From a virus: 50,169 bases of DNA. Both the position numbers and the translations under genes were made by a program. A model generated the notes under the pieces. That model was not told the origin of the DNA. It was given only the letters and a program-made list of their open reading frames with translations, and did no database searches. Shown here in pieces: positions 1 to 46,908 of the stretch (positions are counted from its first letter, which is position 1; each line of letters opens with the position of its first letter). The stretch lies in IMG/VR virus record IMGVR_UViG_3300037311_000346. One strand, given 5' to 3'.

Positions 1-127
1 CCTTGTCGGAGCCGGGCTGTATCCGAGGGAACGGAAAGCCGTCGAGCGTGATCGAGTGCGTCCGGAAGACCGAGTGCGAGGCGCCCTCGAGATCGATGTG
101 GAACGCGTAGCCCGGGTTCACGAACCA
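1..127. repeat. Terminal overlap, copy 1. It is identical to 50043-50169 and marks circular closure of the contig.
   Basis: Direct comparison: ccttgtcggagccgggctgtatccgagg...gtagcccgggttcacgaacca is present at both window ends, 127 nt with no mismatch seen. Confidence 0.95.
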
Positions 128-922
128 CGAGACCGCGTGGGGGAGCGCGTCCTCGCGCATTAGCGCGAAGCGGATCGCGAAGGCGGTCTGCCCTCGCCGC
201 GTGTGCGGGTCGACGTCCGGAGCGATCAGGTCGACGGAGCCGCGCCCGCGCGTCGGCGTCTGCGGCGTCCACCCGTGGATGTAGGAGCCCTCCGACCGCT
301 GGACGAGGACCCAGCCCTCCGGGATGTTGCGGAGCGTCAGGCGCCGGAAGAACGCCTCGGCGATCGGCGCGTCCGTCTGCGCCGTGTGCCAAAGGAGGTC
401 GAACTCGACCATCGGGAGCCCGGAGTAGGCCGTGACGTCGCCCTCGACCGCCCCGAAGTGCTCAAGGAGCGCCGAGCCCGACTCCGGGCGCAGGCGCGCG
501 CGGAACGAGTCGCGGAGCCGGACGGCGCCCTGCTCGTCGAGCTGCGAGAGGTCGGTGTCGACGCGCGCCGAATAGACCGCGTCGACGCCCTGGACCTCAA
601 GCCGCAGCGCCGCGGCCGCCGGGTAGAAACCTGCGAGTCCCTGCCAGTCGAACGAGCCCGGCGTCGAGCCGTCGACGACCATCGCGACGTCGCCGACGAG
701 CGCGACGCCCGGGACGACCGCGCAGACCTCGACCGTCCGGTGGAGGTCGACGTCGCCTCGCCGCACCCGAAGCGCGGGCGTGACCTGCGTCGGGTAGGCG
801 CGACCGCCGACGCGGATCGACAACGCCGGGAGCGCGTCGACGTCATCAGCCGGGACCGTCGCCCGGAGCGCAACGTAGGGCGGGACGTAGTCCTGCGGGA
901 TCGCCAGGAAGTTGCGGATCAT
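1..922 (-). CDS. N-terminal part of the same wrap-around gene. It is absent from the ORF track because it runs off the window.
   Basis: Hand translation of minus-strand codons (plus-strand triplets at positions 2 mod 3) found no stop from 922 to 1. ATG at 922-920 overlaps the upstream stop (ATGA). Peptide MIRNFLAIPQDYVPPYVALRATVPADD...HAVSWFVNPGYAFHIDLEG joins the 48769..50163 ORF. Confidence 0.75.
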   Translation of the reverse strand, partial: MIRNFLAIPQDYVPPYVALRATVPADDVDALPALSIRVGGRAYPTQVTPALRVRRGDVDLHRTVEVCAVVPGVALVGDVAMVVDGSTPGSFDWQGLAGFYPAAAALRLEVQGVDAVYSARVDTDLSQLDEQGAVRLRDSFRARLRPESGSALLEHFGAVEGDVTAYSGLPMVEFDLLWHTAQTDAPIAEAFFRRLTLRNIPEGWVLVQRSEGSYIHGWTPQTPTRGRGSVDLIAPDVDPHTRRGQTAFAIRFALMREDALPHAVSWFVNPGYAFHIDLEGASHSVFRTHSITLDGFPFPRIQPGSDK

Positions 923-1284
923 CGCGGCAGCGGGGGCACGGGAGAGGAGGAGACCAGGGCCCAGACCAGCAGCCGGCGGTTCGGCTCGTCGCGCTGCCAG
1001 GCCACGACCTGCGCCGCGCGCTCGTCGACGACGATCGCCGAGCCGAGCTGCGGATCTGGGCGGCGCAGGCTGAGCGACAGCCGAACGACGAGCCCTTCGT
1101 TCGCGTCCTCGGCCGGGACGATCCCCACCACGGGTCGGTCGGGGTTGCCGCCCCAGGGATCCTCGGAGTCCGCGGCGCGCACGAACTCCGAGACGACGGC
1201 GAGGACCTCGTCCGCGAGGGACTGGTCGCTCGCCGTCTCGAGGACGTGGCGCAGCGCGGTGCGGAGCGACTTCGCGTCGGTCAC
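919..1284 (-). CDS. Hypothetical protein (121 aa)
   Basis: The C-terminal part of track ORF 919..1371 has normal composition (VTDAKSLRTALRHVLETASDQ...). GTG at 1284 overlaps the upstream stop (GTGA). Confidence 0.6.
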   Translation of the reverse strand: MTDAKSLRTALRHVLETASDQSLADEVLAVVSEFVRAADSEDPWGGNPDRPVVGIVPAEDANEGLVVRLSLSLRRPDPQLGSAIVVDERAAQVVAWQRDEPNRRLLVWALVSSSPVPPLPR

Positions 1285-1805
1285 GGCCTCGCGAGAGCTC
1301 CTTCCCACGGAAGCGGGTGGTCGAGCTGGACGGTCTCGCCGGACGGGAGGCGCTGGGCGTTGCCGATCCACTTCTGCGCTTCGGCGCTCCAGCCGTAGAC
1401 GATGCCGCTTGCCGGGTCGACGAACTCCTGGGCGACCGCCGGGTCCGGAGGCGTCAACGCTGCGACGCTCTCGATCGACGCCGCGCTCTCCTTCGGTTCC
1501 TCGACCTCTTCGCCCGGGTCCGCGTCGACCACGATCTCGCCGCGCGCGACGAGCCCGTCGAAGGTTGCGCCGACGATCTCGTCGAGGTTCGGGCGCGCGT
1601 ACTCGCCTCCTCGCTCGGCTCGGACGTCGCGGTCCGCCAAGGCGAAGTCGGCGGCGAAAGCCTGCAGGCGGACGAGCTCCTCGGGCGCGAGGAGCTTCGA
1701 CGTCTGCGCGGTCGCGACGTAGCGGCGCACGAGGTTCTCGGCGAAGAGGTCTCCGGGCCTGAGCGTCAGGGTCAGCGCGGCTGCTCGGTCTTGCGCGGTT
1801 GTCAT
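1281..1805 (-). CDS. Hypothetical protein (174 aa)
   Basis: Track ORF 1281..1850 trimmed to ATG at 1805 (MTTAQDRAAALTLTL...). Acidic and balanced composition. Confidence 0.65.
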   Translation of the reverse strand: MTTAQDRAAALTLTLRPGDLFAENLVRRYVATAQTSKLLAPEELVRLQAFAADFALADRDVRAERGGEYARPNLDEIVGATFDGLVARGEIVVDADPGEEVEEPKESAASIESVAALTPPDPAVAQEFVDPASGIVYGWSAEAQKWIGNAQRLPSGETVQLDHPLPWEGALARP

Positions 1806-1851
1806 GGTCGTTCTCGGATGTGGCGGGTGACGTCGGATGGCGACGCCCATA

Positions 1852-2304
1852 CTACCTCGCTGCTCGTCGCGCGCGACGGGCTGCGGCTTGGCCCTCCTCG
1901 GTGACCTGCCATCGGATCGTTGCTTCGTTCACGACCTCAAGCCGGAGGAGCCAACCGCGGCGCTCCAACGCCCACAGCGACGGCCCTCCGAAGCGCGCTC
2001 CGGCGAGGCGGGTCCCGACGCGCACCTGCCCGCGGCCGACGAAAACCGAGAAGACCTCGGCCCCGTAGCGGACGACGCGCCTCATCAGGATGGACAGCCT
2101 CGGGTCGCGGCCGATGGACGAGGACGAGCCAGCCGGCTGCGGAATCGGCTCGACGCCTCCGACCTCCCCCGTGCGTCGCAGACGGAGGTAGTGCATGTGG
2201 CAGAGGTCGCGCGCACGCACCGGCCGTCCGCACCCCTCGACGGAGCAGACGCCGGTCGGGTGCTTCCAGTAGCGGCGGACTCGTTTCGGTGTCTCGGTGG
2301 TCAT
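1852..2304 (-). CDS. Putative zinc-finger / winged-helix DNA-binding protein
   Basis: CSVEGCGRPVRARDLCHMHYLRLRRTG resembles the Cys/His motif common at the N-termini of phage HNH-associated proteins. The C-terminal LWALERRGWLLRLEVVNEATIRWQVTEEG looks wHTH-like. Confidence 0.5.
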   Translation of the reverse strand: MTTETPKRVRRYWKHPTGVCSVEGCGRPVRARDLCHMHYLRLRRTGEVGGVEPIPQPAGSSSSIGRDPRLSILMRRVVRYGAEVFSVFVGRGQVRVGTRLAGARFGGPSLWALERRGWLLRLEVVNEATIRWQVTEEGQAAARRARRAAR

Positions 2305-2305
2305 G

Positions 2306-3610
2306 TCAGTAGGGCCAGAGCGGACCGAGGACGGCCGCCCGGAAGTTGAGGAGGTCCGCTGCGATCGGCGCGAGGCCGGGCGCGCTCGGGTTGAGCGCGA
2401 GCTGCTCCCAGGGATCGGTCGAGAGGTCGAAGAGCGCGAACGTCGCGCCCTCCGTGACCAGCTTCCAGCCGTCCTCGCGCACCACGGCCCAGTTGTCGAG
2501 CGTCAGCGTCGGCGCGGCGCCCCCGTTCGGGCTGAACCGAGAGACGAAGGCGAGCTGCCGGCGCGTCGCTCCGGCCGGCGTTCCGTCGAGCGTCGCGGCG
2601 AACGAGATCGCGTCGTCGAAGCCCACCGCCGGGGTGACGCCGCAGACGTCGAGGATCGTCGTCGAGAGGTCGAGGACCTGGACGAGGGTCGCATCCGCGC
2701 CGGGCGCAACGCCGGGCCCCCACCAGAGAAGCGGGACGCGGATGCCTCCCTCCCAGCAGGTCAGCTTGTAGCCGTTCGCCTGACCGCCCGGCGGCGGTAC
2801 CTGGTGGGCGGTTCCGTTGTCGCAGACAAGCACGACGTGAGTCGTCGAGAGATCGACGACCGGGAGCAGCGTCCCGAGGTAGCTGTCGAGCGCGACGAGG
2901 GCGGCCTCGAAGCGCGCGCGGTTCGTCCCGCCGACGACGTAGCCGGGCGGGAGCAGCGCAGCGGGCGGCGCCTCGAAAGGTTCGTGCGGAGCGAACGGCG
3001 CGACGACCGCCAGCTTCGGTCCCGGGGTCGCCGCCCACCAGTCCACCGCCGCGTCGATCACGGCGGTCGTCGAGTAGACCGTGGTGGTCCGCGTCGCGCC
3101 GTCGTCCGTCCTCGGCCAGGAGTAGTGCGAGGTCGTGATGTTCGACGGGTGACCGGCGCGCCAGACCTCGAATCCGTGGACGCGCCCCTGCTCGCTCGGG
3201 TTGGCGCCGGCAAGCCCGGAGACGTGCGCCTTCCCGAAGAGTCCGGTCGCGTAGCCGCTCGCCGCGAGCAGCTCCGGCAGGGTCTTCGTCGCGGCGCTGA
3301 GTCCGACGAGATCGGGGTCGGCCACGTTGAGCGCGCCTCCGATGAAGGCGCGGTGCGGGTACGTTCCGGTCAGAAGCCCGGCTCGAGACGGAGAGCAGAC
3401 CGGGCAGGTGTAGCAGCGACCGTACGAGCGCGCGAGCGGAGCGAACGCCTGGATGTTGCCAAGTGGGACCGCCGCGAGGTCCTCCCAGCCGACGTCGTCT
3501 ACCACGATCACGAGCACCGAAGGCGGCGCCGCCTGCGCTGCGAGCGGGCGGCTGAGAAAGGCGACGGCAAGCGCCGCGAGAAGGAGGCGGAAAGCGAGTG
3601 CAAGGCTCAT
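2306..3610 (-). CDS. Secreted Cys-type (formylglycine-dependent) sulfatase, 434 aa
   Basis: Motifs VLVIVVDDVGWEDL, PVCSPSRAGLLTG (C-x-P-x-R signature), LFGKAH, VLVCDNGT and YKLTCWEGGIRVPLLWWGPG. N-terminal signal peptide MSLALAFRLLLAALAVAFLSRPLAAQA. Track ORF 2306..3991 trimmed to ATG at 3610. Confidence 0.9.
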   Translation of the reverse strand: MSLALAFRLLLAALAVAFLSRPLAAQAAPPSVLVIVVDDVGWEDLAAVPLGNIQAFAPLARSYGRCYTCPVCSPSRAGLLTGTYPHRAFIGGALNVADPDLVGLSAATKTLPELLAASGYATGLFGKAHVSGLAGANPSEQGRVHGFEVWRAGHPSNITTSHYSWPRTDDGATRTTTVYSTTAVIDAAVDWWAATPGPKLAVVAPFAPHEPFEAPPAALLPPGYVVGGTNRARFEAALVALDSYLGTLLPVVDLSTTHVVLVCDNGTAHQVPPPGGQANGYKLTCWEGGIRVPLLWWGPGVAPGADATLVQVLDLSTTILDVCGVTPAVGFDDAISFAATLDGTPAGATRRQLAFVSRFSPNGGAAPTLTLDNWAVVREDGWKLVTEGATFALFDLSTDPWEQLALNPSAPGLAPIAADLLNFRAAVLGPLWPY

Positions 3611-4284
3611 GTCGTCGGCCCTCTTCGCGTGGCAGCGCGCACGATGTCGAGCGCAGGGTCCTGTTGCTTGCGCCGGCGCCACCGTTCGCGCGCGTCTGCG
3701 ACCTCCACCGACGCGGCGAGCGGCTGGCGCGCCTCGACGGGGGCGGAGGGTGAGGTGGAGATCCGCGCGTCGATGTCCGCAAGCAGCGACGCGGCGTCCG
3801 CGACCGACAGGCGCAGCGGCTTCGGCTCCGGGTGCTCCTCGACCTCGCGCCGGAGCACGTCGACCGTGAACGGCACCGGCTTGCCGTCGATCGACTGGAT
3901 CCGGTGGCGCTCGCCAGCGGGCGCAGCAAGGCCGGCGCGTAGCGCGTCGATGTAGTCGAGCATGTTTCGCTCCCACGGCGTGAGCGCGCAACGAGCGTGC
4001 TCGCGCAAGAGGCGGATCCCGAAGGGCTCCTCCACCGGCACGGCCGTTGGCCGCTCCGGCTTCTGCAGCCGCTCGATCGCCGCGACGGCATCCTCGACCT
4101 CGGGGTGGTTGAGGATGGCTCCGTCGTCGTCGCGCTGCAGCAGCCCAAGAGCGTCGCAGACGTAGCGCCAGAAGCGGAGGAGCGACTCGCGTTCGCGCGT
4201 GACGTCCTCAAGGCAGACCTTCAGAGTTTCGAGCGTCTGCGTTCGCGGGCCCGGGCGGGGGTTGGGTTCGGTTTGCGCGTTCAC
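3607..4284 (-). CDS. Hypothetical protein (225 aa)
   Basis: Track ORF with normal composition. GTG start at 4284 overlaps the upstream stop (GTGA). Its own stop overlaps the sulfatase ATG (ATGA). Confidence 0.65.
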   Translation of the reverse strand: MNAQTEPNPRPGPRTQTLETLKVCLEDVTRERESLLRFWRYVCDALGLLQRDDDGAILNHPEVEDAVAAIERLQKPERPTAVPVEEPFGIRLLREHARCALTPWERNMLDYIDALRAGLAAPAGERHRIQSIDGKPVPFTVDVLRREVEEHPEPKPLRLSVADAASLLADIDARISTSPSAPVEARQPLAASVEVADARERWRRRKQQDPALDIVRAATRRGPTT

Positions 4285-4808
4285 GATCGGGTTCCTCCGT
4301 GAGGAAGGTGGCTTTGTCGGATGAGCTCGTCGGCGAGGGCGAGCGCGGTCGCGACCATCTGCGTCGCGGCGTCGCCGCTCGTGCGGTCGGCCCCGTTTGC
4401 GAGCAGCCCGCCGAGGAGTTGCGTTGCAATTTGGAGCCTCTCCAGCCGTCGCGTTTCCGCGGACTCGAAGAGGTCGCGCCCGGACGCCGTGACCGCGCGC
4501 TCTCGCGGCTGCCCGTTCGACATCCCGCGCCCCGGAGAAAGCGCGACGGCCTCCTCGCTGACCGCGGGCGCGGGCTTCGGCTGCGCCGTCGGCCGACTTT
4601 CTGCCTCGAAGACGGCGGACTCCGGAACGCCGAGAGCGTCCGAGACCAAGCGGCGCGTCTCCGCCCTCTTCGGATACTGCCCGAGCGACTCCCAGCGAAC
4701 GACCTGGCCTCGGTGGACGCCGGCCGCAGCGGCGAGCGCCTCGACGGTCAGCCCTCGGGCGATCCTTGCGGCGGCGAGCGCCTCTCGCTTGCGGTTGGAG
4801 CGTGTCAC
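4281..4808 (-). CDS. XRE/Cro-CI-type helix-turn-helix regulator
   Basis: N-terminal ALAAARIARGLTVEALAAAAGVHRGQVVRWESLGQYPKRAETRRLVSDALGV fits an HTH_3-like pattern. GTGA coupling to the upstream gene. Confidence 0.7.
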   Translation of the reverse strand: MTRSNRKREALAAARIARGLTVEALAAAAGVHRGQVVRWESLGQYPKRAETRRLVSDALGVPESAVFEAESRPTAQPKPAPAVSEEAVALSPGRGMSNGQPRERAVTASGRDLFESAETRRLERLQIATQLLGGLLANGADRTSGDAATQMVATALALADELIRQSHLPHGGTRS

Positions 4809-6298
4809 GACGGTTCGCCCTCCCGACCTTCGTCGTCGTAGTCGCCGCTGGCGATGCGCTGCTCCGCCTCGTCCGCCTCGCTGCGCGTCGGCTCCGGCTC
4901 GCGCTGTCGGCGCGCGCGAGCCTTCTTCGGCGTGCCCTCGATCGCGCGAGCGACGCCGTCCTCGATGACGATACCGGGCCCGTGCTCGTCGGGCTGGTCG
5001 TCGACGAGGACCATCAGGAGCTGGAAGCCCTGCTCCTCGATCATCTGCCGGACGCGAGCCCGGTTGAAGCTGTCCAGGCGGTTGCCGTCGTCGACGCGCA
5101 GCAGGCGGAGCTGCGGTGCACTCGCCATCGCGACTCCGAGCCCGACCACGATCCGCTCCTCTCCCGATGCCGACGAGGGGAAGGGTCGCCCTTTGTAGGT
5201 GAGCCCGTCCTCGTCGAAGGCCAGTCCCTCGACCGGCATCCGCACCTCGGCCAGCGTCGTCGCGAGGAGCTGGTCGATCGCCGCCAGCGCGGCCGTGTGG
5301 CGCTCGACGACGGCCCTGGCCGCGTCGCGTTTCACTCGCTCGGCGCGGACGCCAGCGACGAGCTCGGCGTTCGCGGCGAGGTCTCGCATCGCCTCCGCGC
5401 GCTGGCGATGCTCCTCGGGGGAGCCTGCCGCGGCCGCTGCGAGGTCGGCGGCGTCCGCGCGTCGCGTCGCGTCTTCGAGCATGCGCTTCAGGTTCTCGAC
5501 GGTCTCGCGCGCCATCTTCGCGGCCGCCTGAGCGTCGCGCGCCCGCTCGTAGGCGGTCGTCGCGTTGCGCAGCTCCTCGCGCGTGATCGCCGGCGCGTCC
5601 GCGGCCCCGGTCGGGACGCGCTCCTCCAGGGCGCGCACGGTCGCGTCCGCGTCCGCGAGACGCCGGCCCGCGACCGTGCGCATCTCCGCCACGGCCTTCT
5701 TCGCCTTGCTGATCACGTCGAGGGCGTGCCCGCGCTCGTCGGCGGCAAGGTCGAGCGGCCCGAGGATGTCGCGCAGCTCCTCGCGCGGTACGCGCGGCGC
5801 GACCGCTTCGACCAGCGCGTCGCGCTGCTTGCGGCGGCCTTCGGCGCCGCGCTCTCCGAGCTCCACCCAGGCGAGCGGGTCGATCGCCACGCGCGAGAGT
5901 AGGCCGTCGAGCAGCTCCTGCGGCTTCGGGACGCGCTCGCCGGTCGCCCAGCGGACCGTGAGGCTCGTCGAAACGCCGCCGTCGTCGGTGCGGCGCCAGC
6001 GCCTCGTGACGATCAGCGCGCCGAGGTTCACCTCGGACTCGGCCTCGCGCTCGCCGGCGCGAATCGCGTCCGGGCGCGGCGCGCCCTGCAGCGTCTCCCA
6101 GATCGCGTCGAGGAGCGAAGTCTTGCCCTGCTCGTTCGCGCCGCGGACCTCGATCAGCCCGTTCGGGCCGAACTCCAGGTCGACGGCGGAGAGGCGGCGG
6201 TAGTTGCGGACCCGAAGGCCTCGCAGGAAGAGAGGGTCTCGGCGGTTGCTCGCGCCGTTGCGCGAAGCGCCGAAGAGGTCGGCGGCGGACTCGGTCAT
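4805..6298 (-). CDS. SMC/SbcC/RecF-like ABC-type ATPase with a central coiled coil
   Basis: LRGLRVRNYRRLSAVDLEFGPNGLIEVRGANEQGKTSLLDAI (Walker A). Long Ala/Glu/Arg-rich helical middle region. SSASGEERIVVGLGVAMA (signature-like). LLRVDDGNRLD (Walker B). Confidence 0.75.
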   Translation of the reverse strand: MTESAADLFGASRNGASNRRDPLFLRGLRVRNYRRLSAVDLEFGPNGLIEVRGANEQGKTSLLDAIWETLQGAPRPDAIRAGEREAESEVNLGALIVTRRWRRTDDGGVSTSLTVRWATGERVPKPQELLDGLLSRVAIDPLAWVELGERGAEGRRKQRDALVEAVAPRVPREELRDILGPLDLAADERGHALDVISKAKKAVAEMRTVAGRRLADADATVRALEERVPTGAADAPAITREELRNATTAYERARDAQAAAKMARETVENLKRMLEDATRRADAADLAAAAAGSPEEHRQRAEAMRDLAANAELVAGVRAERVKRDAARAVVERHTAALAAIDQLLATTLAEVRMPVEGLAFDEDGLTYKGRPFPSSASGEERIVVGLGVAMASAPQLRLLRVDDGNRLDSFNRARVRQMIEEQGFQLLMVLVDDQPDEHGPGIVIEDGVARAIEGTPKKARARRQREPEPTRSEADEAEQRIASGDYDDEGREGEPS

Positions 6299-6408
6299 GG
6301 TGGGACTCCAGGGCGGCGCCGAAGCCTATCTCCGGCGCGCGCTCCAGACCTTACGGCTCACGGCGCCGCATGACCGCAGGGAATCTGCGCTTTTCCCGAC
6401 GGCGAGAG

Positions 6409-6756
6409 CTAGTGCAGCCAGGAGCGCCAGTCGTGGCAAAGGTGACGGTGGATCGCGTCGTGGCAAGGCCGGCAAAGGGCGGCGCCGTTCTCCGGCTGGT
6501 CCTTGCCTCCGCGACCTCTCGGCCGAAGGTGGTGCGCGTCGAGCTCGGCCGCGCGGCGGGCCTTGAAGCCGCAGCGCTCGCACCGGCCGCCGGCGCGCTC
6601 GAGCACCGCGCGGCGGAACTCGGCCCGCGAGTCGCGTTTCGCCGAGGAGCCTCCGCGCTCGAGCCGGGCGGACCGCGTCCGGCGCGGCCCGGAGCCCGGC
6701 GCCAGCGCCGTTTTCCGCGCCAGCCCTTTGGACCGCCGAAGGCCTTTCCGCCTCAC
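6409..6756 (-). CDS. HNH endonuclease
   Basis: CERCGFKARRAAELDAHHLRPRGRGGKDQPENGAALCRPCHDAIH. Confidence 0.85.
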   Translation of the reverse strand: MRRKGLRRSKGLARKTALAPGSGPRRTRSARLERGGSSAKRDSRAEFRRAVLERAGGRCERCGFKARRAAELDAHHLRPRGRGGKDQPENGAALCRPCHDAIHRHLCHDWRSWLH

Positions 6757-7271
6757 GCCAGCCCCTCGAGGATCGAGACCGCCATCACGAGGCCCGGTCG
6801 GTCGCCGTACCGCTTCACCCGGTGCACGGCGACGACCACGCAGTCGTCCTCCCAGAGGATCGGCTCGGGCCGCAGCGGCGGAGCGTTGCGCCTTCGGGAA
6901 CGACGCGACGGCTGCCAGGCGCCGCAGGCGTCGAGCACGGCCTTTTCGAGGTTGTCGCCATCCGGCCTGTTGGCCATCCAGGTCGGCGCGGTCGCGCGAA
7001 GCGGCCGCGCTCGGTCGCGCGCCACGAAGTGTCCCAGCGGTCGCGCGAAGGTGAAGCCGAGCGAGACGAGCAGCGGCTGACCGGGGCCGAACGCTGGCAG
7101 CGGGAGGCCGGCGCGGAGCGCGGCGTTGCGAGCTGCAAGGCGGACCGCGGTCTTCCAGTCGTCGGCGCTGTCGTCCTGGTAGGTTCGCGGTCGGCGTGCG
7201 CGCGTGTTCGTTCGGTGCCGCGGCTCGGGCGCGGGATCGCCGGAGACCTGGAACTGCAAGACCTGGATCAC
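6753..7271 (-). CDS. rusA: RusA-family Holliday-junction resolvase
   Basis: RPDGDNLEKAVLDAC...LWEDDCVVVAVHRVKRYGDRPGLVMAVSIL. Track ORF 6753..7616 trimmed to GTG 7271 (GTGA overlap); the longer N-terminus is Arg/Ala junk. Confidence 0.8.
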   Translation of the reverse strand: MIQVLQFQVSGDPAPEPRHRTNTRARRPRTYQDDSADDWKTAVRLAARNAALRAGLPLPAFGPGQPLLVSLGFTFARPLGHFVARDRARPLRATAPTWMANRPDGDNLEKAVLDACGAWQPSRRSRRRNAPPLRPEPILWEDDCVVVAVHRVKRYGDRPGLVMAVSILEGLA

Positions 7272-7756
7272 GAGGCGCCTCCGGCGGCTTCGTCGTCCGG
7301 CTTCGCGCACGCGCGGAAAACCGGCCCGAGCTTGCCGCGAACGCTCTCGACGATCTGCAGGATGCGCGCGAAGTCCGCGTCGGCTGCTGCGAAGGTCTCG
7401 AGGATCCGCGCCCGCTCGTCGGCCCGCGCGCCGGCGAGGTCCCGGCTCTTCGCCCGCCGCACGCTCGCCTGCAGCGCCTGCCGCTGCTTGCGCAGCTCCT
7501 CGATGTCGCGGCGCACCAGCGCGGCCTCGGCCTCGTAGTGGCGCCAGGCCCGCTCCTTCGTCGCGTAGGCGCGCAGGATCGACCAGGGGTCCAAGACCTC
7601 GCCGCACTTCCGGCACTCGACCGATCGCGTCGCGTCGATCACGGCGAAGCTCGGATGCGAGCAGCGCGCGCGCGACTCGTCGAGCGCCGTCTCCGGCTCC
7701 GTCGCTGGCCGGGGGAACCGGATCAGATTCCCGGCCTCGTTCGGTTGGTCGCTCAC
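7268..7756 (-). CDS. Hypothetical zinc-ribbon / coiled-coil protein
   Basis: CSHPSF...ECRKCGEVLD followed by a heptad-like EAEAALVRRDIEELRKQRQALQASV. GTG 7756 overlaps the upstream stop. Confidence 0.55.
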   Translation of the reverse strand: MSDQPNEAGNLIRFPRPATEPETALDESRARCSHPSFAVIDATRSVECRKCGEVLDPWSILRAYATKERAWRHYEAEAALVRRDIEELRKQRQALQASVRRAKSRDLAGARADERARILETFAAADADFARILQIVESVRGKLGPVFRACAKPDDEAAGGAS

Positions 7757-8709
7757 GCCCGCGCCTCCTCGAGCCGCGCTCGAAGGCCAGGAAGCGCCGC
7801 GCGCCACGCCGCCACGCCGCCGTCGACGATCGAGCCCGGCACGAGATCCGGGGCCTTAACGACGAGGGCCTCGAAGCGCGCCAGGGCCGCGTCGACGGAG
7901 CCGAAGCGCCCGGTCATCTCGCGCCGCGCTGCGCCGCGCCGACGCGCGTCCGCGCCCAGCGCCCATGCGACGGCGCGCTCCAGGTCGTAGTCCCAGAGCC
8001 CGAGCCCGAGCGGCTCGAAAGGCATCCGCGCGCTCGGTCCGCTGGTGTCGGCCGGGCCTGGGGGCGCCGCCGCGCTCGTAGTCGCGGCGTCGAGGAAGCC
8101 GCCGCGCGCGGCCTCGACGAGCCATCCCGCCGGCGTGCGCGCCGCGCGAGCCCGCTCGCGCAGGCGCCCGGCCTCCGCCTCCGGGTCCTTCGCCTGCGCG
8201 AGGAAACTCGCGACCGCCTCGACCGTTTGCTGACGGCGCGGCGCGCCGACGCCGAGCTCCGCGACCAGCGCGATCGCCTCCTCCGCCGCTCGGAGGTGAG
8301 GTTCTTCTCTCCTTCCCTCTCCTTCTGTGGTCCGCAGCGGACCCGATGTGGGTCCGGAGCGGACCCGATCGGGCTCGAAGCGGACCCGGTTCACGTCGAC
8401 GATCGGGTCCGGAGCGGACCCGGTTCGTCGCCAGAAGACTACGGCGAAGCGGCGCCCGTCGATGTCGCGGCGTCGCCAGACTCCGGCCGCGACGAGCTCG
8501 CGGACGTAGCCCGAGACCTTCGACCGGCCGGCGTGCCAGAGCTCGCCGAGGTAGCCGTGGGATGCGAACGTCTCGCCGACCGAGTAGAAGCGCGCCTGCA
8601 CGAACGCCGCGAAGCGTGCGGCGTTGACGGAGACGCCGCGCGCGACGATCTCCTCGACCTCCAGGTAGCGCCAGGCGCCGCCGCCGGACTCCTCCGATTT
8701 GCCTCCCAT
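7753..8709 (-). CDS. Putative replication initiator / DNA-binding protein with an internal repeat array
   Basis: Track ORF 7753..9288 trimmed to ATG 8709, preceded by GGAGGAGG. HTH-like SHGYLGELWHAGRSKVSGYVRELVAAGVW. Iteron-like repeats lie inside the coding sequence at 8329-8426, as in lambda O/ori. Confidence 0.5.
   Translation of the reverse strand: MGGKSEESGGGAWRYLEVEEIVARGVSVNAARFAAFVQARFYSVGETFASHGYLGELWHAGRSKVSGYVRELVAAGVWRRRDIDGRRFAVVFWRRTGSAPDPIVDVNRVRFEPDRVRSGPTSGPLRTTEGEGRREEPHLRAAEEAIALVAELGVGAPRRQQTVEAVASFLAQAKDPEAEAGRLRERARAARTPAGWLVEAARGGFLDAATTSAAAPPGPADTSGPSARMPFEPLGLGLWDYDLERAVAWALGADARRRGAARREMTGRFGSVDAALARFEALVVKAPDLVPGSIVDGGVAAWRAALPGLRARLEEARA
8329..8426. repeat. Iteron-like array, a candidate replication origin
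   Basis: The 17-nt palindrome GGGTCCGGAGCGGACCC occurs at 8350-8366 and 8405-8421. A variant TGGTCCGCAGCGGACCC is at 8329-8345. AGCGGACCCG(A/G)T occurs four times in total. A polypyrimidine tract at 8301-8327 is adjacent. Confidence 0.7.
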
Positions 8710-8770
8710 GACCTCCTCCGGGTGCCGAACGCTGGCCCGACGGAACGCCCGCCGGGCCGTTGCGGATCTC

Positions 8771-10072
8771 TCAGCGTCGCGGGCGCACGTTCGCCGGCGG
8801 AGGGTAGTAGGTCTCGAGCGCGTCGACCTCCATCGCGACGACGAGCTTCGCGAGCTCGCGCTTCGGCAGCGCCGCCAGCTCGGCGACGCCGAGCTGGCGC
8901 TGCAGGGCCACGATGTATTCGCGCGTGTAGCCTCGCCGCATGACCGCCTCGCGGCCGTCCGCGACCAGCTCGTCGAGCTCGTTCTGGAGCTTGTCGGCGA
9001 GCTCCTCGGGGTAGTCGTGAGCAACGTCGCGCGGCCCCGCGGGCTCGTCGACCTCGCCGCTCGACTCAGGCTCCGGCTCCGGCTCCGGCGCGGGCGGCTC
9101 CTCGACGGGCTTCTCCGGCTCCGGCTTGGCGCGCCGGGAGCGCGCCTTCGGTTCCGCCGTCTCCTTCGCCTTCGCGATCGCCTTCGCGACGCTCTCCGCG
9201 TTCGGAAGCGAGCCGATCGCGACGGAGACGTCGAGGCTCTTCGCTGGCGCGGACTCCAAGGGCGCGGTGGCGGCGAGCAGCTCCGCAAGCTGGGCGTGGC
9301 CCTCCGACAGCGACGTCCAGAGCCGGAAGAGGCGACCGAGCGTCTCTTGGGTCCACGCCTCGTAGCGCGCGCCCGCGAGCCGCTCGACGTCCTCGACGGA
9401 GATGCCGCGGTCGGCGAACGACTTCAGCGCCTGGGTCTTGTTCGCCTCGAGCGTCGCCGCAGCCTTCTTCGCGTCCGGCGCCGCTTCCGCGCGGGCGCGC
9501 GCGTCGGCCGCGACCGCCAGCGCGATCTCGACGAGCGACGACGGCAGGACCTTGAGAAGCGCGTTCCGCTCGGCGCGCGCACCCCACGAGTTGATGACCT
9601 CGACCGCCTCCAGGTGCGACGCCCGCTGCGAGACGGAGAGCGTCGAGCCGTCCGGCTGCTTCTGCCGCCGCGAGACCTTGAGCTCGAACTCGGACTCGTG
9701 CTCGCTGGACGTGAGCGCGACGAGGTCGATCGCGAAGCCCGCGACGCGCGCGGTCCCGTTTCTCACGTGGACGATGCGCGTCCCGTAGTGGATCCGGCCG
9801 TGAAGTCGCGCGAGCTCCCGAGCGAGGCGGACGCTCGGGCCGGTGACGAGGTCTCCGCCGCGCGGGATCGCGTACTCGGCCTCCGCCGCGAGGCGCGGGT
9901 CGGAGAAGGCGGTTCGCGTCGCAAGCTCGACGGCGCGGTCGTCGCGGCCGTTGTAGGCGGCCGCCTCGAAGAGCATCCGGACGAGCGTCGTCTCGTGCGC
10001 GGCTGCGCGCGCGGTGTCGACGGAAAGAGAGCCGGGCAGGGTGCCCGAAGATGCCAGGGCGTGGTCGTTCAT
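8771..10072 (-). CDS. Putative single-strand annealing protein (RecT/Red-beta-like by position) with a PE-rich C-terminal tail
   Basis: Immediately downstream of the YqaJ exonuclease. AIPRGGDLVTGPSVRLARELARLHGRIHYG resembles SSAP core motifs. Track ORF trimmed to ATG 10072. (ggctcc)n tandem hexamers at about 9067-9090 encode PEPEPEPE. Confidence 0.55.
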   Translation of the reverse strand: MNDHALASSGTLPGSLSVDTARAAAHETTLVRMLFEAAAYNGRDDRAVELATRTAFSDPRLAAEAEYAIPRGGDLVTGPSVRLARELARLHGRIHYGTRIVHVRNGTARVAGFAIDLVALTSSEHESEFELKVSRRQKQPDGSTLSVSQRASHLEAVEVINSWGARAERNALLKVLPSSLVEIALAVAADARARAEAAPDAKKAAATLEANKTQALKSFADRGISVEDVERLAGARYEAWTQETLGRLFRLWTSLSEGHAQLAELLAATAPLESAPAKSLDVSVAIGSLPNAESVAKAIAKAKETAEPKARSRRAKPEPEKPVEEPPAPEPEPEPESSGEVDEPAGPRDVAHDYPEELADKLQNELDELVADGREAVMRRGYTREYIVALQRQLGVAELAALPKRELAKLVVAMEVDALETYYPPPANVRPRR

Positions 10073-10076
10073 GAGG

Positions 10077-11084
10077 TCAGGCTCCAGAGTCGCCGCCGCT
10101 GCCGCGGAAGTCGCGGTAGCTGGTCGGCGGGACGGTATAGCCAGCTCGGCGGACCGTTGTCCACCGCAGCCGGAGATCGGATCCGGCGATCGTCGCGGTC
10201 TTCGCCGCGCCCATCGCCGTTTTGAGCTCGCGCGCCAGCTCCCGTGCCTCGGCATCCGCAGCCTTCGCGCGCGCGAGCGCGTCGCGTCGGCGCCGCTCGA
10301 CGTCCGCGAAGCGCGCCGGGAGGACGATCGAGGAGCCGTCGTCGACGGGGTAGGTCGCGGCGATCCAGCGGTCGAGGTCGTCGCCAGAGCGCGTGACGTC
10401 GGGCGGGACGTCGCGCAAGACGTGGTCGTGCCAAAAGCGATCGACCGCCTCGCTCATCAGCCCGAAGAGCTCGGGACTCGCGGCGAAGTCGCGGACGAGG
10501 AGCGGCTCGAGCGTGCCGCGGAAGAGCGCAAGCGACCCCCAGCGGCACCCGGTCAGCCCGAGATACCACTCGACCTGCGCGCGCTCGTAGAGCGGGACGC
10601 CGGTCTCCCAGTCCGGGTGCGGGTGCGCGCTGGTCTTCGCGTCGAAGACGCCGGGGCCCTGCGCGACGTCGTCCGGCAGGGGCTCCTCGCCCGGAGCCGG
10701 GCCGAGGTACTGCTCGACGAAGTCGTCGGGCGTGCCGCAGCGATACCGGCGCTCGCGGTCCGTCAGGAAGAGCGCCAGCTCGCCGCTCGCGCGCGGGACC
10801 TGCTCGACGTCGACGCGCTCGCGCATCGCCGCAAGGTCGAGGCGGCCGCGGCCGTAGAGGCAGAGCCGCCGGCCGGTGTCCTCCTCGAACGCCGTACGGA
10901 TCGCCGGCTCCAGTCGCGTGCCCCAGCGCATCGGCGTCGTCTCTTCGAGCGGCTCGGCGCGGCCCTTCAGCCGCAGCCAGACGTCGAAGGCGTCGGCGTA
11001 GCGCGAGAGGCCAGCGATCGCCGCGGCGTCGGTGCCACCGACCACGCGGCCTCGGCGCGACTCCCAGCGGTTGGGAACGATCAC
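10077..11084 (-). CDS. YqaJ/lambda-exonuclease-like recombination exonuclease
   Basis: GGTDAAAIAGLSRYADAFDVWLRLKG...MRWGTRLEPAIRTAFEEDTG...VFDAKT...QVEWYLGLTG, a PD-(D/E)xK pattern. Confidence 0.8.
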   Translation of the reverse strand: MIVPNRWESRRGRVVGGTDAAAIAGLSRYADAFDVWLRLKGRAEPLEETTPMRWGTRLEPAIRTAFEEDTGRRLCLYGRGRLDLAAMRERVDVEQVPRASGELALFLTDRERRYRCGTPDDFVEQYLGPAPGEEPLPDDVAQGPGVFDAKTSAHPHPDWETGVPLYERAQVEWYLGLTGCRWGSLALFRGTLEPLLVRDFAASPELFGLMSEAVDRFWHDHVLRDVPPDVTRSGDDLDRWIAATYPVDDGSSIVLPARFADVERRRRDALARAKAADAEARELARELKTAMGAAKTATIAGSDLRLRWTTVRRAGYTVPPTSYRDFRGSGGDSGA

Positions 11085-11398
11085 GCGACGGCCGCCTCCA
11101 TGCGGCCGATCACGCGACTCGCGGCCGCTGCCAGCGCAGCGTCGCGCGAGAGGGTCCCGAGCAGAACCTCGGAGTCAAGGTCGCGGCGGATCGTGGTCCA
11201 GAGGTCGGGCAGCCCGCGGATCGCGTCGCGCGAGATCGCCCAGCGCACCTGGTGCGACTCGATCAGGGGCAGAAGCTCGCGCTCGACGTCGCGGCGGTGC
11301 ACTCCGAGCGCCTGCGCGACGGCGCTGATCGGAACGAAGCCCGGATGGTCGCGCAGCCACGCGACGAGTCGAGGCGCAAAGAGAGAGGCGTTGGTCAT
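11081..11398 (-). CDS. Small winged-helix-like DNA-binding protein
   Basis: FVPISAVAQALGVHRRDVERELLPLIESHQVRW. Strong SD (AGGAG) 6 nt upstream of ATG 11398. It is the first gene after the terminator region. Confidence 0.55.
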   Translation of the reverse strand: MTNASLFAPRLVAWLRDHPGFVPISAVAQALGVHRRDVERELLPLIESHQVRWAISRDAIRGLPDLWTTIRRDLDSEVLLGTLSRDAALAAAASRVIGRMEAAVA

Positions 11399-11480
11399 CG
11401 GTTGCTCCTGTGGGGGGCGCCATCATACGGACGCCGAGACGTAGCCGGTCCAGCCAAGTTGGCGCATCGTCGCGAGCTCG

Positions 11481-11520
11481 GGAAAAAAGAAGGGGCGGGA
11501 CGCCGAAGCGCCCGCCCCTT
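11481..11520 (-). terminator. Rho-independent terminator (minus strand)
   Basis: Stem GGGGCGGG(A)CGC / GCGCCCGCCCC with a CGAA loop at 11492-11518. On the minus strand it is followed by CTTCTTTTTTCC (plus-strand aaaaaa at 11483-11488). Confidence 0.65.
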
Positions 11521-11585
11521 CCTCTGGAGCCCGTCGGTGACCAAACCGCGGACGCCCGAAGGTAGCCGAGGCGCAGCGCGGGCTC

Positions 11586-11620
11586 AAGAGAAAGGGCGAG
11601 CCGAGGAGCTCGCGCCCTTC
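11586..11620 (-). terminator. Second candidate intrinsic terminator (minus strand)
   Basis: Stem AAGGGCGAGC / GCTCGCGCCCTT at 11592-11619 with one bulge. On the minus strand it is followed by TTTCTCTT. Confidence 0.5.
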
Positions 11621-11749
11621 GACTCGCCCACCTTGCCTGCCCGAGCGCCGCGATCCCCGAGCGTTCCTACCTCGCGAGGTCGGCGGCAAGGTCGGCGGCG
11701 AGCGCCGCGCCGTCAGGCTATCGCGAAGCGCGCCGTCGCGCCTGACGGT

Positions 11750-11854
11750 TCAGAGGACGAAGCAGGCCGCGACCAGCAGCGCGAAGAAGAGGCTGGAGAG
11801 GATCGCCTCGCCGACGGTGCGGCACGGGGTGCGGGGGTGGAGGGGGTCGGTCAT
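11750..11854 (-). CDS. 34-aa small membrane protein, below the ORF-track cutoff
   Basis: Hand translation gives MTDPLHPRTPCRTVGEAILSSLFFALLVAACFVL*. ATG 11854 overlaps the upstream stop (ATGA). Hydrophobic C-terminal helix. A 9-bp hairpin at 11710-11748 follows the stop directly. Confidence 0.45.
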   Translation of the reverse strand: MTDPLHPRTPCRTVGEAILSSLFFALLVAACFVL

Positions 11855-12246
11855 CGCGGGTCAGCCTCCAGGCAGAGCAGCGACAGGTCGGTCTGCGTGC
11901 GGACGCCGGAGTCCCAGGCGACGATCGCGTAGCCGTCCTCGATCGCGAGGATCCATCCGGCATCCGCGTCGTCGCCGTGCCCAGCCACGACGCGCGAGCC
12001 CTCGCGGATCCGCGGCTCGTCGCAAAGCGCCGCGAGGTGCGACCGCACCCGGGCGTGAACCGTCGAGCCCGGCAGCGCGCCGGTGATCTCCGTGACGCGC
12101 GCATCGAGCGCGGCGCGGCGGGTCGCGTAGCCGCGCTGCGAGTCCGCCCAGCGCCACAGACGGTCGATCGCGGAACGGATCAGAGCCGGTTGCCGTTCGG
12201 CGGCACGCTTGCCCTGCTGGATGCGAGATGCGGTGGAGGCGTTCAT
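11851..12246 (-). CDS. Hypothetical protein (131 aa)
   Basis: Track ORF with normal composition (MNASTASRIQQGKRAAERQPALIRSAIDRLWRW...). Confidence 0.65.
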   Translation of the reverse strand: MNASTASRIQQGKRAAERQPALIRSAIDRLWRWADSQRGYATRRAALDARVTEITGALPGSTVHARVRSHLAALCDEPRIREGSRVVAGHGDDADAGWILAIEDGYAIVAWDSGVRTQTDLSLLCLEADPR

Positions 12247-12515
12247 GCGAGTTCACCCTCGGGGTAGGTTTGACCGTCGACGCGGTAGGAGTCGAAGCGC
12301 GTTTGCGCGCCGTCCGCTCCGCACGAAACGCAGAAGATCGCGCGCGCGAGCTCGCGCGCGGCGCTCGCGGACCGGCAGGGCAGGTCGGCGATCTCCTCGC
12401 CGCAGTAGTCGCAGACGAAGCGCGCCTCGCCGGGCAGGTTTCCAGGGCAGTCGTCGCCGGGCGCTTCGCGCAGGTCGAAGGCGCGCTGGGACGGAAAGGG
12501 CGATGCGGCGCGCAT
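12243..12515 (-). CDS. Small zinc-ribbon protein (90 aa)
   Basis: CDYCGEE...CVSCG pairs. Track ORF 12243..12824 trimmed to ATG 12515, which shares 1 nt with the upstream stop (TGATG). Confidence 0.6.
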   Translation of the reverse strand: MRAASPFPSQRAFDLREAPGDDCPGNLPGEARFVCDYCGEEIADLPCRSASAARELARAIFCVSCGADGAQTRFDSYRVDGQTYPEGELA

Positions 12516-12778
12516 CAGCGGACCTCCGCGCGCTCGACGAGCCAGCGGCCGCGGGCGCGCGCGCCCTTGCGGCGACTCAGCGTCGCGACGTCGCCCGTGG
12601 CGAGCGTGACGACGACCTGAAAGAGCGGGCCGTCGTCCGAGCTGCTCGCTTTGCGCTCGACGCTCCAGCCGCTCAGCTCGCCGTCGTTGTCGATGGTCTC
12701 GGCCAGGCGCAGCCCCTGCTTTTCCAGACGCTGCTGGATGATGAGGACTGCGGCCGCGGTGGTCAGCTTCTTGGTCAT
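12515..12778 (-). CDS. Hypothetical protein (87 aa)
   Basis: MTKKLTTAAAVLIIQQRLEKQGLRLAETIDNDGELSGW... begins at ATG 12778, with GGAG 8-11 nt upstream. Confidence 0.6.
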   Translation of the reverse strand: MTKKLTTAAAVLIIQQRLEKQGLRLAETIDNDGELSGWSVERKASSSDDGPLFQVVVTLATGDVATLSRRKGARARGRWLVERAEVR

Positions 12779-12965
12779 GTGGGGCTCCGGTTGCGCCGAG
12801 CGACCTTTCGCTCGACGCGCCCATCTTCGGCTACTTCTCGCCGACGATCCAGCAATTTGCGCCGAATCCCGCCGGAGCGCCATAAGTCCGCGGTGCCAGG
12901 CGCTTTACAGCGTCGCCGCAAGTAGGTCTTTCGCCGCGACGAGCGCCGCATCGAGCGCCGTCTCC

Positions 12966-13298
12966 TGGGCGACGCCGACGGCCGGCGACGCGAAGGCGAG
13001 CGGCTCGAGGAACTCGCCGGGCAGCGAGGCGCACCTCGGCGTTTCGCTCACGGATCAGATCCGGACGGGGGACTCCTCTGGCCGCCGGGACCGGGCGACG
13101 TCGACGCCTGGAGCCGACTCCCGCCCGAGGCTCAACCCGCGATTCGTGGAGGCGCTGATGGGCCTTCCACCCGGCTGGACCGACTTCGAGCCCTTGGGAA
13201 CGGAGTGGTCCCGCTGGCGGGCGCGCTCGCGCTCCGCGCTCTCGCGGCTCGCTTCGACGCTCGTCTCCGGAGCTGACGGCGCGCCGCCGACCGCCTAG
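12966..13298 (+). pseudogene. Orphan plus-strand fragment resembling the C-terminal part of phage DNA methyltransferase-like proteins. The start is unresolved.
   Basis: WATPTAGDAKASGSRN...LGVSLTDQI...RLNPRFVEALMGLPPGWTDF. High GC3 only from about 12966. The only canonical in-frame start is ATG 12777, which overlaps the divergent ATG 12778. No catalytic N-terminal half is present. Confidence 0.5.
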
Positions 13299-13561
13299 GG
13301 CAGCAGCGCCTCGACGGCGTTCTTGTGCCGCCGGAGCAGCTCGGCCTTCGTTTCGCCTTCGAGCCGCGACGTGCAAACGGCCTCCGGGTCGTTGTCGATC
13401 GCGGTGCAGACGCGCGACACGGCGCCCGGCGAGTCAAGCGCGACCTCCAGGATCCAGCGGAGGAGGAAGTCCTCCTCCGTCTCGTCGACTCCCTGCGAGT
13501 AGGTGATCGGGTCGGCCGGCGGCGTCGGCGGAGCCCACGAGGTGTGCAGCGAGATGGTCAC
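13295..13561 (-). CDS. Hypothetical protein (88 aa)
   Basis: Track ORF. GTG 13561 overlaps the upstream stop. Its stop overlaps the stop of the plus-strand fragment (CTAG at 13295-13298). Confidence 0.6.
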   Translation of the reverse strand: MTISLHTSWAPPTPPADPITYSQGVDETEEDFLLRWILEVALDSPGAVSRVCTAIDNDPEAVCTSRLEGETKAELLRRHKNAVEALLP

Positions 13562-14247
13562 GGGTTGCGTTTCAGCTCCGAGAGCGCCCGGGAAAGAAGG
13601 TCGGCCTGCGCCGCCGCGTCCGCGATGCGCTGGGCCTGGGCGCTGAGCTCGCGCTCCGCGTCCGCAACGCGGCTCTCGAGATCCTCGTGGCGACCGGCAA
13701 GGACGACGCCGGAGCGGTCGGTCTCGACCGCGCGCACGCGGTCGGAGAGCTCCGCGAGCAGCGGGTGGAGGAACGTCTGGAAGTCGCCGACGCCGAACGT
13801 CTCTCCCGGGATCGCGTCGACGTCCTCGCCGAGCGCCTCAAGGTCGCTCCGGAGCTGCGTCACCTGCGACTGAAGCCCGGCGTCCAGATCGCGCATCTCC
13901 CGCTGGAGGGTCTGGTCGAACCGGACGATCGCGTCGGCCATCGACCGCTCGAACTGGTCGGCACGGCGATCGCGCGCGACTCCGGCCTGCTCGTCGTAGC
14001 GGGCGTTTGCGTCGATCTCGCGCTGAAGCACGGTGACCGCCAGACCGCCGATCGTGAGGGCGAGCGCGACGCCCGAGATGATGATCGGCCAGGGCTTCGA
14101 GCTTCGCTCGTCGAGCCGCATGGCGATGCGCCCGATGTCGGTCCGCAGGGCCTGGACGCCGGCCGCAAGCCCTGCGACGTCGCGCTCGACGGCGCCGAGG
14201 CGCGTGAGGATGCCGCCGCCGCTGCTCCCGTTCTCGCCGTCCGTCAT
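13558..14247 (-). CDS. Membrane-anchored coiled-coil protein, possibly i-spanin-like
   Basis: Single TM segment PWPIIISGVALALTIGGLAVTVL followed by a long heptad-rich region. Lies in the cluster of membrane proteins after the tail fibres. Confidence 0.55.
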   Translation of the reverse strand: MTDGENGSSGGGILTRLGAVERDVAGLAAGVQALRTDIGRIAMRLDERSSKPWPIIISGVALALTIGGLAVTVLQREIDANARYDEQAGVARDRRADQFERSMADAIVRFDQTLQREMRDLDAGLQSQVTQLRSDLEALGEDVDAIPGETFGVGDFQTFLHPLLAELSDRVRAVETDRSGVVLAGRHEDLESRVADAERELSAQAQRIADAAAQADLLSRALSELKRNP

Positions 14248-46826: not shown

Positions 46827-46908
46827 GGTCGAGAGGCTCCTGCGCCTTGGTCGCGGCGCTACTTCTTGACGATATCGCCCGGGCGGCCGCTCGGGAAGAG
46901 CCAGCCGC

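Follow-up and report, generated by a model that had tools for sequence, protein, structure and literature searches.

The DNA stretch studied here, the 50,169-nt virus record IMGVR_UViG_3300037311_000346 of IMG/VR (the window, taken at its full length), is a complete siphovirus-like phage genome of about 50 kb, and the minus-strand gene at 2306-3610 encodes what is, judged from its sequence and modeled fold, an intact Cys-type family S1 sulfatase. We propose, with somewhat better than even confidence, that it is an exported, host-derived auxiliary metabolic gene (AMG) of the phage, whose product would desulfate glycans in the periplasm of the infected cell or beyond. An earlier reading of the same stretch, made from its letters and open reading frames (ORFs) and hereafter called the sequence-only reading, had described the gene as an intact secreted formylglycine-type sulfatase carried as phage cargo. 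The features on which the argument turns are the following:

2306-3610, minus strand: sulfatase coding sequence, ATG start, 434 amino acids; Cys-type family S1 (formylglycine-dependent) sulfatase
3530-3610, minus strand: predicted Sec-type signal peptide, codons 1-27 (MSLALAFRLLLAALAVAFLSRPLAA/QA/A), from hydropathy, cleavage motif and model
3494-3499, minus strand: metal ligands D38 and D39, codons 38-39, within VLVIVVDDVGWEDL
3383-3397, minus strand: formylglycine maturation motif C-S-P-S-R, codons 72-76, within PVCSPSRAGLLTG; C72 is the residue converted
2816-2821, minus strand: metal ligands D264 and N265, codons 264-265, within VLVCDNGT
1-127 and 50043-50169: exact terminal direct repeat of 127 bp, an assembly overlap

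The identity of the enzyme is supported by profile, sequence and structure comparisons. The hidden Markov model search against PF00884 that the sequence-only reading had proposed gave a full-length match (E=3.3e-27; 96 bits against a cut-off of 25; profile positions 1-301 of 301, residues 30-325), and 63 PDB sulfatase sequences matched at E<=1e-3, the best being human GALNS (4fdi, E=1.5e-21). The motifs on which that reading had built its case (DD, C-x-P-x-R, GKAH, VLVCDNGT and WEGGIRVPLL) were all found on the minus strand where it had placed them, GKAH contributing K127 and H129, and APHEPF (H209) and GYK (K282) were detected as well. Sulfatase signature 1, C/S-x-P-x-R followed by xxxLTG, is complete and reads P-V-C72-S-P-S-R76-A-G-L-L-T-G. 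The PDB alignments placed D38/D39, C72, R76, K127/H129, D264/N265 and K282 on the matching active-site residues, with C72 aligned to the formylglycine position of GALNS and of E. coli 3ed4, and D264/N265 to the DN pair of GALNS; the misalignment of catalytic residues on which the sequence-only reading would have given up its claim was thus not observed. All ten catalytic and metal residues are present (D38, D39, C72, R76, K127, H129, H209, D264, N265 and K282), and in a 60-sequence alignment they were at least 90% conserved or invariant, likewise S73, P74 and S75, with D39, D264 and N265 invariant among the aligned homologues.

The AlphaFold2 model, built on the same 60-sequence alignment, had a predicted local distance difference test score (pLDDT) of 94.2 and a predicted template-modeling score of 0.91. 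When it was compared with the PDB using Foldseek, the top 50 structures were all S1 sulfatases, with TM scores of 0.75-0.79 (best approximately 0.78) over 436-470 columns and identities of 21-24%; S1_19 carrageenan sulfatases, E. coli 3ed4, S1_16 enzymes, ARSB and ARSA were at the top. The model and these matches agree with the two-subdomain alkaline-phosphatase-like fold, and the small C-terminal subdomain gave a weak SGSH_C match (residues 285-403). None of the NCBIfam equivalog thresholds was reached, the best being choline-sulfatase with 59 bits against a cut-off of 433, indicating a divergent S1 member without assigned specificity.

The protein is predicted to be exported via Sec to the periplasm or beyond. 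Residues 1-25/27 contain one basic residue and an 11-residue hydrophobic core with a Kyte-Doolittle peak of 3.0 at residues 9-19, and this core is followed by the small-x-small cleavage motif PLAA/QA/A. In the AlphaFold2 model, a helix (residues 2-19) and a linker (20-30) lie outside the fold, whose core begins with the strand 31-37. An equivalent N-terminus was present in every full-length homologue of the clade, and in the phage-borne copies it ends in A/Q, with Gln after the cleavage site. Neither a lipobox Cys nor a twin-arginine motif was found at the N-terminus, and the signal peptide is the sole hydrophobic segment of the protein, with no further membrane domain. The description of the enzyme as secreted thus holds as far as the predicted Sec-type signal is concerned, and its final location can be narrowed only to the periplasm or beyond.

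The gene is embedded in a phage operon, as the sequence-only reading had stated. The A of its ATG is shared with the TGA stop of the upstream gene at 3607-4284 (an ATGA overlap), and its own stop TGA (2306-2308) is separated by one base from the ATG of the downstream gene at 1852-2304. A scan of 1-7000 for sigma-70-type promoter and intrinsic-terminator consensus sites found neither, which, along with the overlap and the 1-nt spacing, fits co-transcription with the neighbors; a classic moron layout was discarded as no promoter or terminator of its own was detected. The G+C content of the gene (71.7%) is that of the genome (71.6%), in line with the claim that it matches its neighbors, and its codon usage is native: G+C at the third and second codon positions is 0.89 and 0.55, respectively, the pattern of real genes in 72% G+C sequence, and the gene ranked 5 of 19 in closeness to the genome codon pool (genes of at least 250 codons).

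That 1852-4284 is bacterial DNA misjoined into a phage contig, i.e., an assembly chimera or host contamination, would be suspected solely because phages seldom carry sulfatases. Against this, the Logan assembly of SRR13020431 contains an independently assembled 48,488-bp contig of the same genome, of which 5,305 bases are identical (100%) to window positions 306-5610, and both sulfatase junctions were reproduced. Moreover, the 127-bp terminal repeat is the mark that assembly with k=127 leaves on a circular or circularly permuted molecule, here with a unit of 50,042 bp; with its two ends joined, the contig leaves no flanking host DNA as a source of the sulfatase. The junctions with same-strand phage genes, the matching composition and codon usage, and the similar surroundings of the homologues in other phages (see below) also speak against a chimera. 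This explanation is largely refuted and we regard it as extremely improbable; the sequence-only reading had likewise judged host contamination unlikely, and the terminal overlap, the hallmark genes, the identical independent assembly and the native codon usage bear this out.

A word-indexed protein search retrieved 13 relatives of the sulfatase at 46-66% identity; in IMG/VR, a single-protein scan gave no match and an alignment-based scan did. Relatives are listed with their identity to the window sulfatase and their contexts:

P0008/P0128 (locus L005): 66%; GpA-type terminase and lambda-type portal (Phage_portal_2) downstream
P0002 (loci L010 and L014): 62%; IMG/VR contig with terminase, portal (phrog_145, E=3e-100) and a QueD/PTPS gene
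P0003 (locus L008): 58%; unidirectional gene strings, small ORFs
P0004 (locus L009): 57%; unidirectional gene strings, small ORFs
P0006/L035: 59%; chromosomal, with GST, YaeQ, a glycosyltransferase and two arylsulfotransferases nearby
P0009: 52%; ordinary chromosomal neighborhood
P0012: 46%; ordinary chromosomal neighborhood
P0014 (locus L001): 46%; chromosomal, three tandem paralogues

Loci L008 and L009 share further genes with the window phage, namely those for the 150-amino-acid zinc-ribbon protein, a protein of about 730 amino acids, ParB_N and the TET-associated glycosyltransferase (TAGT). More distant sulfatases, with 35-45% identity, adjoin terminase genes on the IMG/VR contigs L015, L016 and L019. 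In L019 (656-3786; UViG 3300037264_000545), the sulfatase is 35% identical, carries a C-G-P-A-R motif and a signal peptide, and lies one small gene upstream of a terminase 36% identical to that of the window phage, and in L015, L014 and L005 the sulfatase likewise precedes the terminase by 2-8 genes, suggesting that cargo repeatedly occupies this position. The contig of the closest relative phage (L036) begins 2 kb upstream of its terminase, and the presence of a sulfatase is not readable there. An exhaustive HMMER search gave 715 cluster representatives at E<=1e-30, many with 35-50% identity, forming a continuum. The idea of a tiny isolated family, based on a 14-member clade and a drop from 46% to 33% identity in the word-indexed search, was dropped in view of this continuum; the apparent isolation was due to the limited sensitivity of that search.

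In a neighbor-joining tree with 300 bootstrap replicates, six sequences from five phage contexts formed one clade (100% bootstrap), and this clade joined the group of P0005, P0006, P0007 and L035 (100% bootstrap). Its sister and outer branches came from Planctomycetota bins. In GTDB (185,579 species genomes), four matches were found, all of them in Planctomycetota/Planctomycetaceae bins with 68-72% G+C. The nesting of the phage clade within Planctomycetota-bin sulfatases points to capture of the gene from a Planctomycetota-type lineage, and the host is probably a high-G+C member of this phylum, in keeping with the high-G+C host hinted at by the sequence-only reading. Host identification through the capsid or terminase failed: the capsid has two relatives, and the terminase relatives include proteins of Chloroflexi bins with 31-33% identity.

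Two chromosomal loci of the Planctomycetota bins deserve mention on their own. The closest cellular homologue (59% identity), in L035 at 7396-10540 (Planctomycetota bin, Lake Mendota 2014), has two arylsulfotransferase (ASST) genes and a family 2 glycosyltransferase at a distance of about 3 kb, and such surroundings may hint at a role of the clade in sulfate-ester exchange. In L001, at 10001-13859 (Planctomycetota bin GCA_046766275.1), the first of the three tandem paralogues is P0014, which, like P0011, has S-S-P-S-R in place of C-S-P-S-R and FGGWQ in place of FGKxH, and these proteins may be Ser-type enzymes or inactivated paralogues.

The phage copies appear to be kept under purifying selection in a small group of phages, and the gene is not a one-off accident. 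Pairwise Nei-Gojobori ratios of nonsynonymous to synonymous substitution rates (dN/dS) among them were 0.17-0.45, and the least saturated pair, L008/L009 (78% protein identity), gave 0.165; as the strong third-position G+C bias compresses dS, these ratios are, if anything, overestimates. They speak, though only indirectly, for a functional gene. All the phage copies keep CSPSR, DD, GK[ACS]H, DNG and the signal peptide. That the sulfatase is a conserved feature of a small phage group was not visible to the author of the sequence-only reading.

Activation of S1 sulfatases requires a formylglycine-generating enzyme (FGE) or an anSME. No match to the FGE domain (PF03781) or to Radical_SAM was found in any window ORF of at least 150 amino acids, and a six-frame motif scan found no FGE motif pair and no CxxxCxxC in a real coding frame, in agreement with the earlier statement that neither maturation enzyme is present in the window; the related phage fragments also lacked an FGE motif pair. 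A phage-encoded maturation enzyme was rejected on these grounds, and the host must therefore supply it. The enzyme would be useless until the host makes formylglycine, which makes this a clear example of a phage gene that depends on host post-translational maturation.

The proposal of an exported AMG follows from these observations. The gene lies within an authentic viral genome and is flanked by viral genes (closed contig, hallmark genes, co-directional neighbors), and it is of cellular origin, with a non-structural and non-replicative function (clade nested in Planctomycetota sulfatases, metabolic class). We envisage that, after capture from a Planctomycetota-type lineage and retention by purifying selection in the phage group, the gene would be expressed during infection, being transcribed within the single-strand phage gene string and translationally coupled to the preceding gene through the ATGA. 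Host FGE or anSME would then convert C72 of the precursor to formylglycine, and the protein is predicted to be exported via Sec with removal of a signal peptide of about 25-27 residues. In the periplasm or beyond, it would hydrolyze sulfate esters by the chemistry of its family, with D38, D39, D264 and N265 forming the metal site and R76, K127, H129, H209 and K282 assisting the hydrolysis. The substrates would be sulfated sugars or glycans, and desulfation would make more carbon and sulfur usable during phage replication. The substrate is probably a sulfated carbohydrate, an analogy that weakly follows from the nearest structures being carbohydrate sulfatases (the best neighbors are carrageenan S1_19, S1_16 and GalNAc-4/6-sulfatases) and from the donor lineage specializing in sulfated glycans. 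As for the purpose of the gene, we give about even chances, or slightly less, that it provides extra desulfation capacity feeding the infected cell.

Several points weigh against this proposal. The identity to any characterized sulfatase is 21-24%, so the substrate class is not readable from the sequence. PROSITE sulfatase signature 2 is only partly matched, with GKAH in place of GKWH and with F and A at two positions. No glycan-degrading genes were found near the sulfatase in the phage, and the host was deduced only from the phylogeny of the sulfatase gene and from G+C. Finally, the nutrient benefit is an assumption, since the enzyme might instead have the surface of the cell itself as its target. 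This last possibility is the basis of a different explanation, in which the exported sulfatase strips sulfate from the surface of the infected cell or from extracellular glycans, blocking superinfection or keeping progeny virions off debris and slime, as receptor-destroying enzymes and O-antigen-modifying conversion genes do. The conserved export signal in every phage copy, the position of the gene among regulatory and early genes with no metabolic cluster, and the failure to find partner glycoside hydrolases or transporters in the phage all suit this explanation, and a direct role in the life cycle agrees with the long-term retention of the gene by purifying selection in several phages. On the other hand, we know of no sulfated surface glycan serving as receptor of a Planctomycetota phage, the sulfatase is not part of a tail protein, and the scanned genes (all ORFs of 150 amino acids or more, plus some smaller ones) yielded no integrase, giving no support for a lysogenic-conversion setting. 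We therefore regard such remodeling as rather unlikely. Its more specific form, that the phage-specific clade of exported sulfatases in Planctomycetota phages is a receptor-destroying enzyme controlling adsorption, superinfection or virion release by means of hijacked host formylglycine machinery, is doubtful and somewhat less probable still; if true, it would represent a new class of phage-host surface interaction and not nutrient scavenging.

The protein might also be another enzyme of the alkaline-phosphatase superfamily, since PF00884 covers phosphoethanolamine transferases, lipoteichoic-acid-synthase-like enzymes and formylglycine-dependent phosphonate monoester hydrolases as well. A weak NCBIfam match to the phosphoric/sulfuric ester hydrolase PehA (E=0.0055), the known promiscuity of S1 enzymes and the phosphonate complexes among the PAS structures matched by Foldseek are compatible with this. 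However, C-x-P-x-R, K127/H129, H209 and K282 constitute the sulfatase set, no N-terminal multi-pass membrane domain accompanies the signal peptide, and the top 50 structural matches and all 60 PDB sequence matches listed were S1 sulfatases, making a non-sulfatase activity very unlikely. The phosphoethanolamine-transferase/lipoteichoic-acid-synthase branch was excluded, as C-S-P-S-R is present, there is no multi-pass domain and no such structure appeared in the top 50. Similarly little credence is given to a selectively neutral passenger, i.e., a recently captured host gene with no role in the phage. The gene does have an HNH-like neighbor, and related phages differ in what this region contains, as is typical of cargo hot spots, but its codon usage has fully adjusted to that of the phage genome, and the gene is common to five phage contigs whose proteins have diverged to 57-66% identity and whose packaging modules differ (GpA/portal_2 in L005, the phrog_145 portal in L014, portal-MuF here). 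The dN/dS values well below 1 and the retention of all the catalytic residues and the signal peptide also argue against a passenger. A defense or anti-defense role was dropped because PADLOC gave no match for the sulfatase.

The credible genes of the phage genome are all on the minus strand. The genes with assigned functions, along with the neighbors of the sulfatase, are as follows:

40717-42201, minus strand: terminase large subunit (phrog_2, E=5e-36)
38009-40714, minus strand: portal fused to a MuF-like head morphogenesis domain (phrog_2662, E=3e-46; phrog_2468)
35202-36548, minus strand: HK97-type major capsid protein, P0121 (phrog_10, E=1e-37; PF05065)
26494-29175, minus strand: tape measure (PHROG/Pfam scans)
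17004-21761, minus strand: J-like central tail fiber/host specificity protein (phrog_31, E=1.5e-57)
16323-17003, minus strand: Mtd_N-bearing protein, its N-terminus matching PF18454 (major tropism determinant of Bordetella phage BPP-1), E=2e-6
10077-11084, minus strand: RecE/YqaJ exonuclease (PHROG/Pfam scans)
6753-7271, minus strand: RusA (PHROG/Pfam scans)
6409-6756, minus strand: HNH endonuclease (PHROG/Pfam scans)
4805-6298, minus strand: SbcC-like ATPase (PHROG/Pfam scans)
4281-4808, minus strand: HTH_3 (Xre-type) regulator in the same co-directional gene string as the sulfatase (PF01381, E=2.6e-7; PHROG transcriptional repressor/regulator families)
3607-4284, minus strand: upstream gene, 225 amino acids; no Pfam, PHROG, PADLOC or PDB match, and no homologue in related phage loci
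1852-2304, minus strand: downstream gene, 150 amino acids, Cys/His zinc-ribbon, resembling an HNH endonuclease N-terminus (phrog_5351, E=6e-7; phrog_1271, E=1e-5)
128-922 and 48769-50169, minus strand: 731-amino-acid ORF across the circular junction; no Pfam, PHROG, PADLOC or PDB match
44606-48655, minus strand: probable DNA-hypermodification module (genes 46909-47862, 47855-48655 and 44606-45691)

A baseplate hub-like protein was also identified by the PHROG/Pfam scans, and no tRNAs were found in the phage genome. Its genes for recombination are those of the RecE/YqaJ-like exonuclease, RusA and the SbcC-like ATPase. Among 5.8 billion proteins, only two relatives of the capsid protein were found, and judging by this the phage lineage is very poorly sampled. 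A homologue of the 150-amino-acid zinc-ribbon protein (37% identical) is encoded two genes upstream of the sulfatase in the phage locus L008, and the protein itself gave no PDB, Pfam or PADLOC match. The 731-codon ORF across the junction has the same length in the independent Logan gene call; homologues 33-35% identical lie a few genes downstream of the sulfatase in L005, a weak one was found in L008, and its single-sequence AlphaFold2 model was unusable (pLDDT 34). The 225-, 150- and 731-amino-acid proteins were considered as partners of the sulfatase and set aside, as no PDB, Pfam or PADLOC match suggested a function.

The candidate hypermodification module contains a TAGT (PF20691, E=2e-33), located in the only patch of the genome with lower G+C (65-67%), an adjoining ParB_N-like protein with an additional, N-terminal match to a PADLOC type II methyltransferase model, and a DUF5131 protein (E=6e-80) that matches the PADLOC candidates PDC-M41B and M30B. 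Homologues of ParB_N and TAGT accompany the sulfatase in L009, and the QueD/PTPS gene does so in L010/L014. The Mtd_N-bearing protein raised the question of a diversity-generating retroelement, whose cassettes include FGE-like folds, and this link was dropped because a search for a template/variable repeat pair found none; the genes scanned did not include a reverse transcriptase either. The protein at 16323-17003 probably serves in receptor binding, with no active diversity-generating retroelement acting on it.

Waters and sediments contain a large pool of carbon and sulfur in the form of sulfated polysaccharides, which become accessible through desulfation. Planctomycetota specialize in these polysaccharides and have dozens of sulfatases per genome (see also PMC7416419). 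If their phages maintain working sulfatases, infection could raise or redirect the turnover of sulfated glycans. The phage genome also provides a complete reference for a barely sampled lineage, and the compact 434-amino-acid enzyme, from an uncharacterized branch of the family, can be expressed for testing.

Among known systems, the nearest are the solved S1 sulfatases (6b0j and 6psm, Pseudoalteromonas S1_19; 3ed4; 9fo1, S1_16; 4fdi, GALNS; 1fsu, ARSB; 1auk, ARSA), with which the phage enzyme shares the fold (TM 0.75-0.79), C-x-P-x-R, the DD...DN metal site, the Lys/His pair, the His and the Lys. It differs from them in being only 21-24% identical, compact and phage-encoded, in having GKAH for GKWH, and in its C-terminal LGxxWPY end, which is invariant and sets its own clade apart. 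The N-terminal export signal is shared with most bacterial carbohydrate sulfatases. The Planctomycetota-bin sulfatases (P0006/L035, P0009, P0012, P0014 and the L001 paralogues) resemble it in sequence (46-59% identity), length, WPY end and signal peptide, and their loci have 68-78% G+C, but they stand in chromosomal contexts with GST, YaeQ, glycosyltransferase, arylsulfotransferases and molybdopterin oxidoreductase, and in the paralogues P0011 and P0014 Cys is replaced by Ser and the Lys/His pair is missing, changes that no phage copy shows.

On the viral side, the earlier statement that sulfatases are uncommon in phages was confirmed: no credible homologue was found in 50,697 GenBank phage records, where tblastn gave 13 partial matches of at most 37% identity, discarded as mostly mislabeled bacterial or unannotated gut contigs, and in BFVD no tailed-phage protein with a sulfatase fold was found at E<=1e-3, only giant-virus proteins. 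The latter (Yasminevirus, Satyrvirus, Tetraselmis virus 1) likewise represent a viral alkaline-phosphatase/sulfatase fold, but belong to eukaryotic viruses, are 12-16% identical and superpose poorly (root-mean-square deviation of 7-9 Å). The family phrog_19870, without assigned function, partially matches the N-terminal region of the sulfatase (E=4e-13). Many phage genes annotated as 'FGE-sulfatase' belong to diversity-generating retroelement cassettes, having a reverse transcriptase and Avd as neighbors (PMC11318856), and these encode a different protein from the S1 sulfatase of the window. The AMGs of sulfur and glycan metabolism described in phages are host-derived genes lying between phage genes and are thought to redirect host metabolism (PMC10232697, PMC13477221); unlike an S1 sulfatase, the known ones, such as the PAPS reductase gene cysH and viral sulfotransferases, assimilate or add sulfate. 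Exact-phrase searches of a limited collection of literature text found no description of a phage-encoded S1 sulfatase, and in the same collection no paper combined arylsulfatase, AMGs and viral. Collectively, neither the enzyme family and its chemistry nor the idea that phages carry auxiliary genes is new, and what is unusual here is their combination in a phage.

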